NCBI GenBank assembly: GCA_951406725.2
Contig: OX597839.1
Span: 20,956,001 to 21,020,000, forward strand
From: Octopus vulgaris
Lineage: Eukaryota
Reading direction: 5' to 3'
Length of the DNA: 64,000 nucleotides
Shown: positions 4,938 to 40,994 of the stretch, one piece after another
Layout: the number at the start of each line of letters is the position of its first letter
Position numbering within the stretch: the first letter of the stretch is position 1
The notes under the pieces: generated by a model
The model's database searches: none
What the model was told of the DNA's origin: nothing
What the model saw: the letters and a program-made list of their open reading frames with translations, nothing else
Made by a program: the position numbers and the translations under genes

Positions 4938-5042
4938 GTGACCATAACTTCTGCCGTAACCCAGGCAACGAAGAAGACAGGCCTTGGTGTTTTACAACCA
5001 ATGAAAATGTCAGGAAGGAGATCTGTGACATACGTAACTGTG
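4938..5042 (+). CDS. Ror: Ror exon: C-terminal half of an extra kringle located N-terminal to the Ig domain
   Basis: ttcacag|...|gtatgt, 105 nt, phase 1-1; [35 protein letters not shown] (NxCRNP..PWCFT kringle signature). Splicing to the Ig exon is inferred from phase. Confidence 0.85.

Positions 5043-40994: not shown

Follow-up and report, generated by a model that had tools for sequence, protein, structure and literature searches.

How many kringles can a Ror carry, where do additional ones come from, and do they bring a second Wnt-binding CRD with them? These questions are raised by a Ror gene of Octopus vulgaris in a stretch of 64,000 nt (GenBank assembly GCA_951406725.2, contig OX597839.1, positions 20,956,001 to 21,020,000, forward strand), hereafter called the window. 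A first-pass annotation of this DNA had described two complete kringles after the CRD, each on a 144+105-nt exon pair, and a third 105-nt kringle C-half in phase ahead of the Ig exons. Splicing the 13 constant exons of the gene in silico gave one open frame of 1015 residues. These exons and one optional exon are listed below, with the kringles designated K0, KA and KB from the N-terminal side.

4938..5042, + strand: K0 kringle C-half exon, 105 nt; its N-half, the leader and the first exons precede the window
9060..9237, + strand: Ig domain exon 1, 178 nt
11650..11756, + strand: Ig domain exon 2, 107 nt
13235..13270, + strand: Ig-CRD linker micro-exon, 36 nt
16414..16468, + strand: Ig-CRD linker exon, 55 nt, phase 1 to 2
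19395..19513, + strand: CRD (Frizzled-like) exon 1
22560..22769, + strand: CRD exon 2
24660..24755, + strand: CRD exon 3
25691..25834, + strand: kringle KA N-half, 144 nt; KA directly follows the CRD
26896..27000, + strand: kringle KA C-half, 105 nt
32340..32372, + strand: KA-KB spacer exon of 33 nt, optional: O. sinensis isoform X1 and the O. bimaculoides models include it, X2 omits it
36509..36652, + strand: kringle KB N-half, 144 nt
37985..38089, + strand: kringle KB C-half, 105 nt, with a one-codon shift relative to K0 and KA
39352..40994, + strand: single 1643-nt coding exon with transmembrane (TM) helix, tyrosine kinase, Ser/Pro/Gln-rich tail and stop

Both exon pairs after the CRD were confirmed in their coordinates, as was the third C-half at 4938-5042; all five kringle exons have AG/GT ends and are phase 1 on both sides. 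A kringle profile searched against six frames of the window matched those five exon pieces, with no sixth match. The linker exons 13235-13270 and 16414-16468 had been absent from the first-pass exon list. The spliced coding sequence showed no difference from O. vulgaris CAI9741306.1 (P0126, which may come from the annotation of the window's own genome and would then not be independent of it) and CAI9741307.1 or from O. sinensis XP_029651506.1, and zero differences were likewise counted for P0126, P0124 and P0122. The protein differed from that of O. bimaculoides at 5 places. Addition of the optional exon 32340-32372, which is in frame and lengthens the KA-KB spacing by a basic stretch of 11 residues, reproduced O. 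sinensis XP_029651505.1 exactly. The KB C-half exon (37985-38089) has an extra residue at its start, and its last cysteine codon is split by an intron. The introns contain interspersed repeat copies of about 85% identity (e.g. 27223-27633 and 37518-37910) and many long microsatellites; intron likeness around the three kringle modules was non-positional, and interspersed repeats are its best explanation.

The membrane and cytoplasmic parts are those of a Ror. The protein has a single TM helix and a Ror-type kinase with a YxxxYY loop, and the best named matches of the kinase exon were Rors. The TM helix, the entire kinase and the tail share the one exon at 39352-40994. The GxGxxG (GEGAFG), VAIK, HRD and DFG motifs are all intact. 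Vertebrate ROR1/2 are pseudokinases with a non-consensus glycine loop and DLG, whereas the octopus Ror has neither. C. elegans CAM-1, which has consensus motifs, is an active kinase according to the accessible part of the source (PMC4100928). By analogy, the octopus Ror kinase is likely active. Since its motifs are intact like those of active CAM-1, the word 'inactive' in database entries was likely carried over from human ROR1.

The K0 exon stands 4017 nt from the Ig exons, and its splicing was assessed with contigs from 4 of the 24 runs listed, one per study (4 studies), at 4860-5300. In all four runs, the contigs (3.4-4.6 kb) covered only 4936-5042 of this region. The 30 unaligned letters past 5042 matched the start of exon 9060 at 29/30 places, and the 30 unaligned letters before 4936, read by hand, encoded the last residues of the P0126 kringle N-half. 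The runs are presumed to be RNA, and the skip of the 4017-nt intron at the exact splice sites is as expected of spliced RNA. The junction 5042|9060 proposed at first pass was thus found in 4/4 runs from 4 studies. Support for the other junction to be confirmed, 27000|36509, comes from database models and from proteins of short Logan contigs (up to 6 kb). An upstream kringle N-half exon had also been predicted; the N-half exists in the contigs and in P0126, and its coding length fits the 47 full codons that the KA and KB N-half exons each carry. No piece of the K0 N-half, leader, Ig or CRD was found in window positions 1-4937.

What precedes K0 was read from full-length models, which run leader-K0-Ig-CRD-KA-KB-TM-kinase with 3 kringles and 1 CRD. 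Pfam detected three kringle stretches, one Ig and one Fz stretch in 5/5 three-kringle proteins scanned; in P0126, the I-set domain lies at 151-238, Fz at 277-391 and one of its 3 kringle stretches at 418-495. We are highly confident of this architecture, in which three Ror-type kringles are arranged around one Ig domain and one CRD. In P0126 and in GAB1602231.1 (P0125) of Argonauta, a hydrophobic leader, called as a signal peptide from hydrophobicity only, comes first; an RxKR site, about 40 acidic, tyrosine-rich, cysteine-free residues and then K0 follow. We take the RxKR site after the P0126 leader to be a furin consensus. The leader begins 67 (P0126) and 57 (P0125) residues ahead of K0, with no cysteine between, and none of the 25 cluster members listed had a longer domain-bearing N-terminus. 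In P0126 (residues 32-67), the last 4-5 residues of the stretch after RxKR recur in the Ig-CRD linker, which may be chance. The contigs of two studies end at P0126 codon 49/50, the same place where database models diverge, and this coincidence, noted across the contigs and P0126, P0124, P0003 and P0135, points to alternative first exons. The first-exon form seen in P0124 and P0003 is conserved between both cephalopod clusters (see below), yet has no hydrophobic leader.

The three-kringle layout was found in three Octopus species, in Argonauta and in a more distant cluster of proteins from Logan contigs (P0003 and its kin). Compared with the octopus protein, P0003 is 94% identical in the kinase and 79% in the ectodomain. 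Because gastropod kinases reach only 82%, the Logan cluster is likely from a more distant cephalopod, a squid or cuttlefish; no named Nautilus, squid or cuttlefish Ror was among the matches listed in the protein searches. The search results held 135 kinase-bearing proteins with a kringle match, with one kringle in 111, two in 4 and three in 20. The three-kringle set of 20 comes entirely from both cephalopod clusters, and a shortened octopus model makes up one of the four proteins with two kringles. We also counted 28 named non-cephalopod spiralian Rors (24 mollusc proteins plus a brachiopod, a nemertean, an annelid and a rotifer, excluding isoform repeats and unnamed matches): 26 have one kringle, 2 have none and 0/28 have more than one. 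The layout is therefore not general in lophotrochozoan Rors, a possibility that the first-pass annotation had named as one that would refute its reading. Ror models of the sacoglossan slugs Elysia and Plakobranchus (P0026, P0029) gave no kringle match, through loss or an annotation gap. The three-kringle Ror is real, spliced and conserved, and it is apparently limited to cephalopods.

We then considered how the kringles are related. The K0 C-half is identical to the KA C-half at 23/35 residues, as first noted, compared with a mean of 2.5 and a maximum of 10 in 10,000 shuffles. The K0 C-half also matched single-kringle Rors at 23/35 (Haliotis), 26/35 (Lottia) and 24/35 (Owenia) residues, so that 23/35 marks a Ror kringle and not specifically a copy of KA. 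In a tree of 113 kringles (quick mode), K0, KA and KB fell inside the Ror kringle group with moderate support (SH-aLRT 87 and 82), separate from those of plasminogen, HGF and the plasminogen-like proteins of molluscs, and the closest non-cephalopod kringles to all three were Ror kringles. A more careful tree of 39 rows gave K0 (100/100), KA (100/97) and KB (100/100) each a group of its own. Each group spans the octopods and the Logan cluster, indicating that both copies predate that split. The order of duplication was not resolved: K0, KA and KB stood together as one side in 0/200 bootstrap trees, and AU tests did not reject a union (p = 0.20 for all three, 0.28 for K0+KB, 0.38 for K0+KA). The stem of KA was 0.19 long versus 0.46 for K0 and for KB, and Ror-specific positions were kept at 9/10 in KA, 7/10 in KB and 5/10 in K0.

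The extra kringles probably arose by duplication of the gene's own two-exon, phase-1 kringle module, which is the simplest account. The exon pair would have been copied into phase-1 introns ahead of the Ig exons and after KA, before the octopods split from the distant Logan cluster. Such copies would keep the frame, because the pair is phase 1 at both ends and both insertion introns are phase 1. The acidic tyrosine-rich leader ahead of K0 resembles the leader of one-kringle Rors, which fits insertion between leader and Ig. Exon-module duplication, as suggested at first pass, thus gained support, whereas the further suggestion of a whole Ig-CRD-kringle cassette with both CRDs retained did not, with one Fz per protein. 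Rors with two CRDs do occur elsewhere (Ptychodera P0056, sea urchin, starfish and two wasps), so that a bivalent Wnt receptor made by cassette duplication has precedent. In the octopus it is very improbable: one Fz stretch was detected in each three-kringle protein scanned, no longer domain-bearing N-terminus appears among the cluster members listed, and in O. vulgaris and Argonauta a leader and about 40 cysteine-free residues alone precede K0. The same protein could also have had another history: an old duplication of the cassette, then deletion of the first Ig-CRD exons, with K0 left as the remnant. The kringle-Ig-CRD-kringle run of Ptychodera was made by cassette duplication, a duplicated cassette was partially lost in echinoderms, and the short word shared by the pre-K0 leader and the Ig-CRD linker would agree with such a history, although it is of low complexity and weak. 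Against this, such a history takes two events and another one for KB, window 1-4937 shows no relic of an Ig or CRD, and half of the Ror-specific positions are gone from K0; we judge this history unlikely. Least credible, on a par with the bivalent receptor, are an origin of exon 4938-5042 in another gene or as a relic, and import of the extra kringles from a plasminogen-like gene. Multi-kringle plasminogen-like proteins occur in molluscs and the support for the Ror group is only moderate, but for each of the three the nearest kringle outside cephalopods is one from a Ror, and the splicing of the K0 exon to the Ig exon in 4/4 runs refutes a relic.

Of all ectodomain parts, K0 was the most similar in O. 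vulgaris and P0003, with an identity of 68/78 (87%), compared with 71/94 (75%) for Ig, 102/132 (77%) for the CRD, 64/78 (82%) for KA and 63/79 (79%) for KB; the lead of K0 over KA is a few residues and is absent in the comparison with Argonauta (93% vs 86-95%). K0 keeps all six cysteines and has two conserved N-glycosylation sequons. Positions conserved across kringles (PF00051) were kept at 24/30 in K0 and 28/30 in KB. AlphaFold2 predicted folded Ig, CRD, KA and kinase domains, while K0 and KB had pLDDT below 50, with just 5 near-identical rows of the 35-row alignment spanning them. The predicted kringle fold of K0 and KB rests on sequence, namely the six cysteines and conserved core present in both. 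A two-copy prediction of K0-Ig, run without an alignment, scored 0.00 and carries no weight either way. A lysine-binding kringle of the plasminogen type has two acids, an Arg and a trough of aromatics. We compared the kringles at six lysine-site positions, which we take from plasminogen kringle 4. K0 matched 4/6 in octopods and 5/6 in P0003 (Glu counted as Asp), and KA and KB matched 2/6. K0 has Lys in place of the second aromatic of the site, and none of the three kringles has a complete plasminogen-type site. In human ROR1, Lys369 is described as the blocking residue in the available portion of one report (PMC9067376). At that position, mapped by hand via turtle ROR1, K0 has Glu, and KA and the Haliotis kringle are also acidic.

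How might the three kringles work? The CRD of human ROR2 and of fly Nrk makes up a single unit with its kringle, kringle removal lowers ROR2 secretion, and WNT5A signalling needs the CRD, as far as the accessible text of the two sources goes (PMC11219042; bioRxiv 2021.04.29.442059). By this likeness, KA would stay packed on the CRD and stabilize it, so that KA is likely the partner of the CRD and the receptor likely a Wnt co-receptor with one CRD. The single CRD would be the ordinary Wnt5/Frizzled co-receptor module, by analogy with the Ror family (PMC11219042, seen in part). KB is likely a spacer, which would add the length of one domain between the membrane and the CRD-KA unit. K0, which has no adjoining CRD, may have diverged fast and then come under tight constraint, a pattern that would suit partner binding at the tip of the receptor. 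A role for K0 as a putative binding site for another receptor or a matrix protein is plausible on this pattern of conservation, at slightly below an even chance. The other possibility is that the extra kringles are structural passengers, that is, spacers or aids to folding or glycosylation with no partner of their own. The fold alone constrains kringles, K0 has its two conserved sequons, the lysine site is incomplete in all three kringles, and human ROR2 signalling needs only the CRD according to the part of the report available (PMC11219042). On the other hand, from one distant cephalopod cluster to the other K0 has changed no more than the CRD and KA, and its conserved positions include ones unlike all other Ror kringles; the passenger role seems rather unlikely, if less so than cassette duplication followed by loss. 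Overall, the best explanation, which we hold to be probable, is a three-kringle Ror produced by module copying, with the outer kringle as a putative binding site. More speculatively, and with considerable doubt, the coleoid tip kringle K0 could have become a new ligand or clustering site, through which this kinase-competent Ror would read a second, non-Wnt input unique among Rors, with an acidic, partly lysine-site-like pocket and tuning by the alternative first exons and the optional KA-KB exon.

The octopus gene is a Ror by every defining feature tested (CRD-kringle, TM plus kinase, and Ig). It shares with human ROR1/ROR2 and the Rors of Aplysia, Haliotis and Lottia the Ig domain, CRD, adjacent kringle, TM helix, Ror-type kinase and Ser/Pro-rich tail. 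Its kinase is 82% identical to those of gastropod Rors, and its CRD-KA region matches the ROR2 CRD-Kr structure 9FSE (E = 7.6e-73). Unlike the canonical Ror with its single kringle, it has two more, before the Ig domain and after KA, and its kinase keeps the consensus motifs that vertebrate ROR1 lacks. Variability of Ror ectodomains has already been remarked upon, as the accessible part of one paper records (PMC2772990). In our results, Pfam assigned 2 Fz and 2 kringles to P0056 of the hemichordate Ptychodera, the sea urchin and starfish Rors contain 2 Ig with 2 Fz, two proteins of parasitoid wasps (Fopius and Diachasma) contain 2 Fz with 2 kringles, and the amphioxus Ror has three Ig domains. 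Within this two-CRD/three-Ig set (P0056, P0156, P0112, P0095, P0096 and P0044), the two-CRD Rors are better candidates for bivalent receptors than the octopus gene. A search of literature listings, with subscription journals mostly beyond its scope, found no description of a multi-kringle or cephalopod Ror.

A part in dimerisation has been suggested for the Ror kringle by co-immunoprecipitation and is unsupported by structure, according to the part of a review that was available (PMC13259870). The cephalopod Ror separates kringle roles naturally, with one kringle bound to the CRD and two free, the one at the tip being strongly conserved, and it is a clean candidate for a Wnt-receptor change confined to coleoids. 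Tandem kringles likewise occur in plasminogen, HGF and apolipoprotein(a), and the octopus KA-KB pair aligns to plasminogen 4A5T. Proteins of the plasminogen type, in contrast, are secreted, have no CRD or kinase, have kringles that group apart and possess the lysine site that is incomplete in the octopus. Among Rors, those of Ptychodera, echinoderms, wasps and amphioxus repeat the CRD or Ig domain, whereas the octopus Ror repeats only the kringle, which it carries three times, twice without a preceding CRD. In kringle number and position it is unlike any other Ror examined, with a layout that is already implicit in public gene models.
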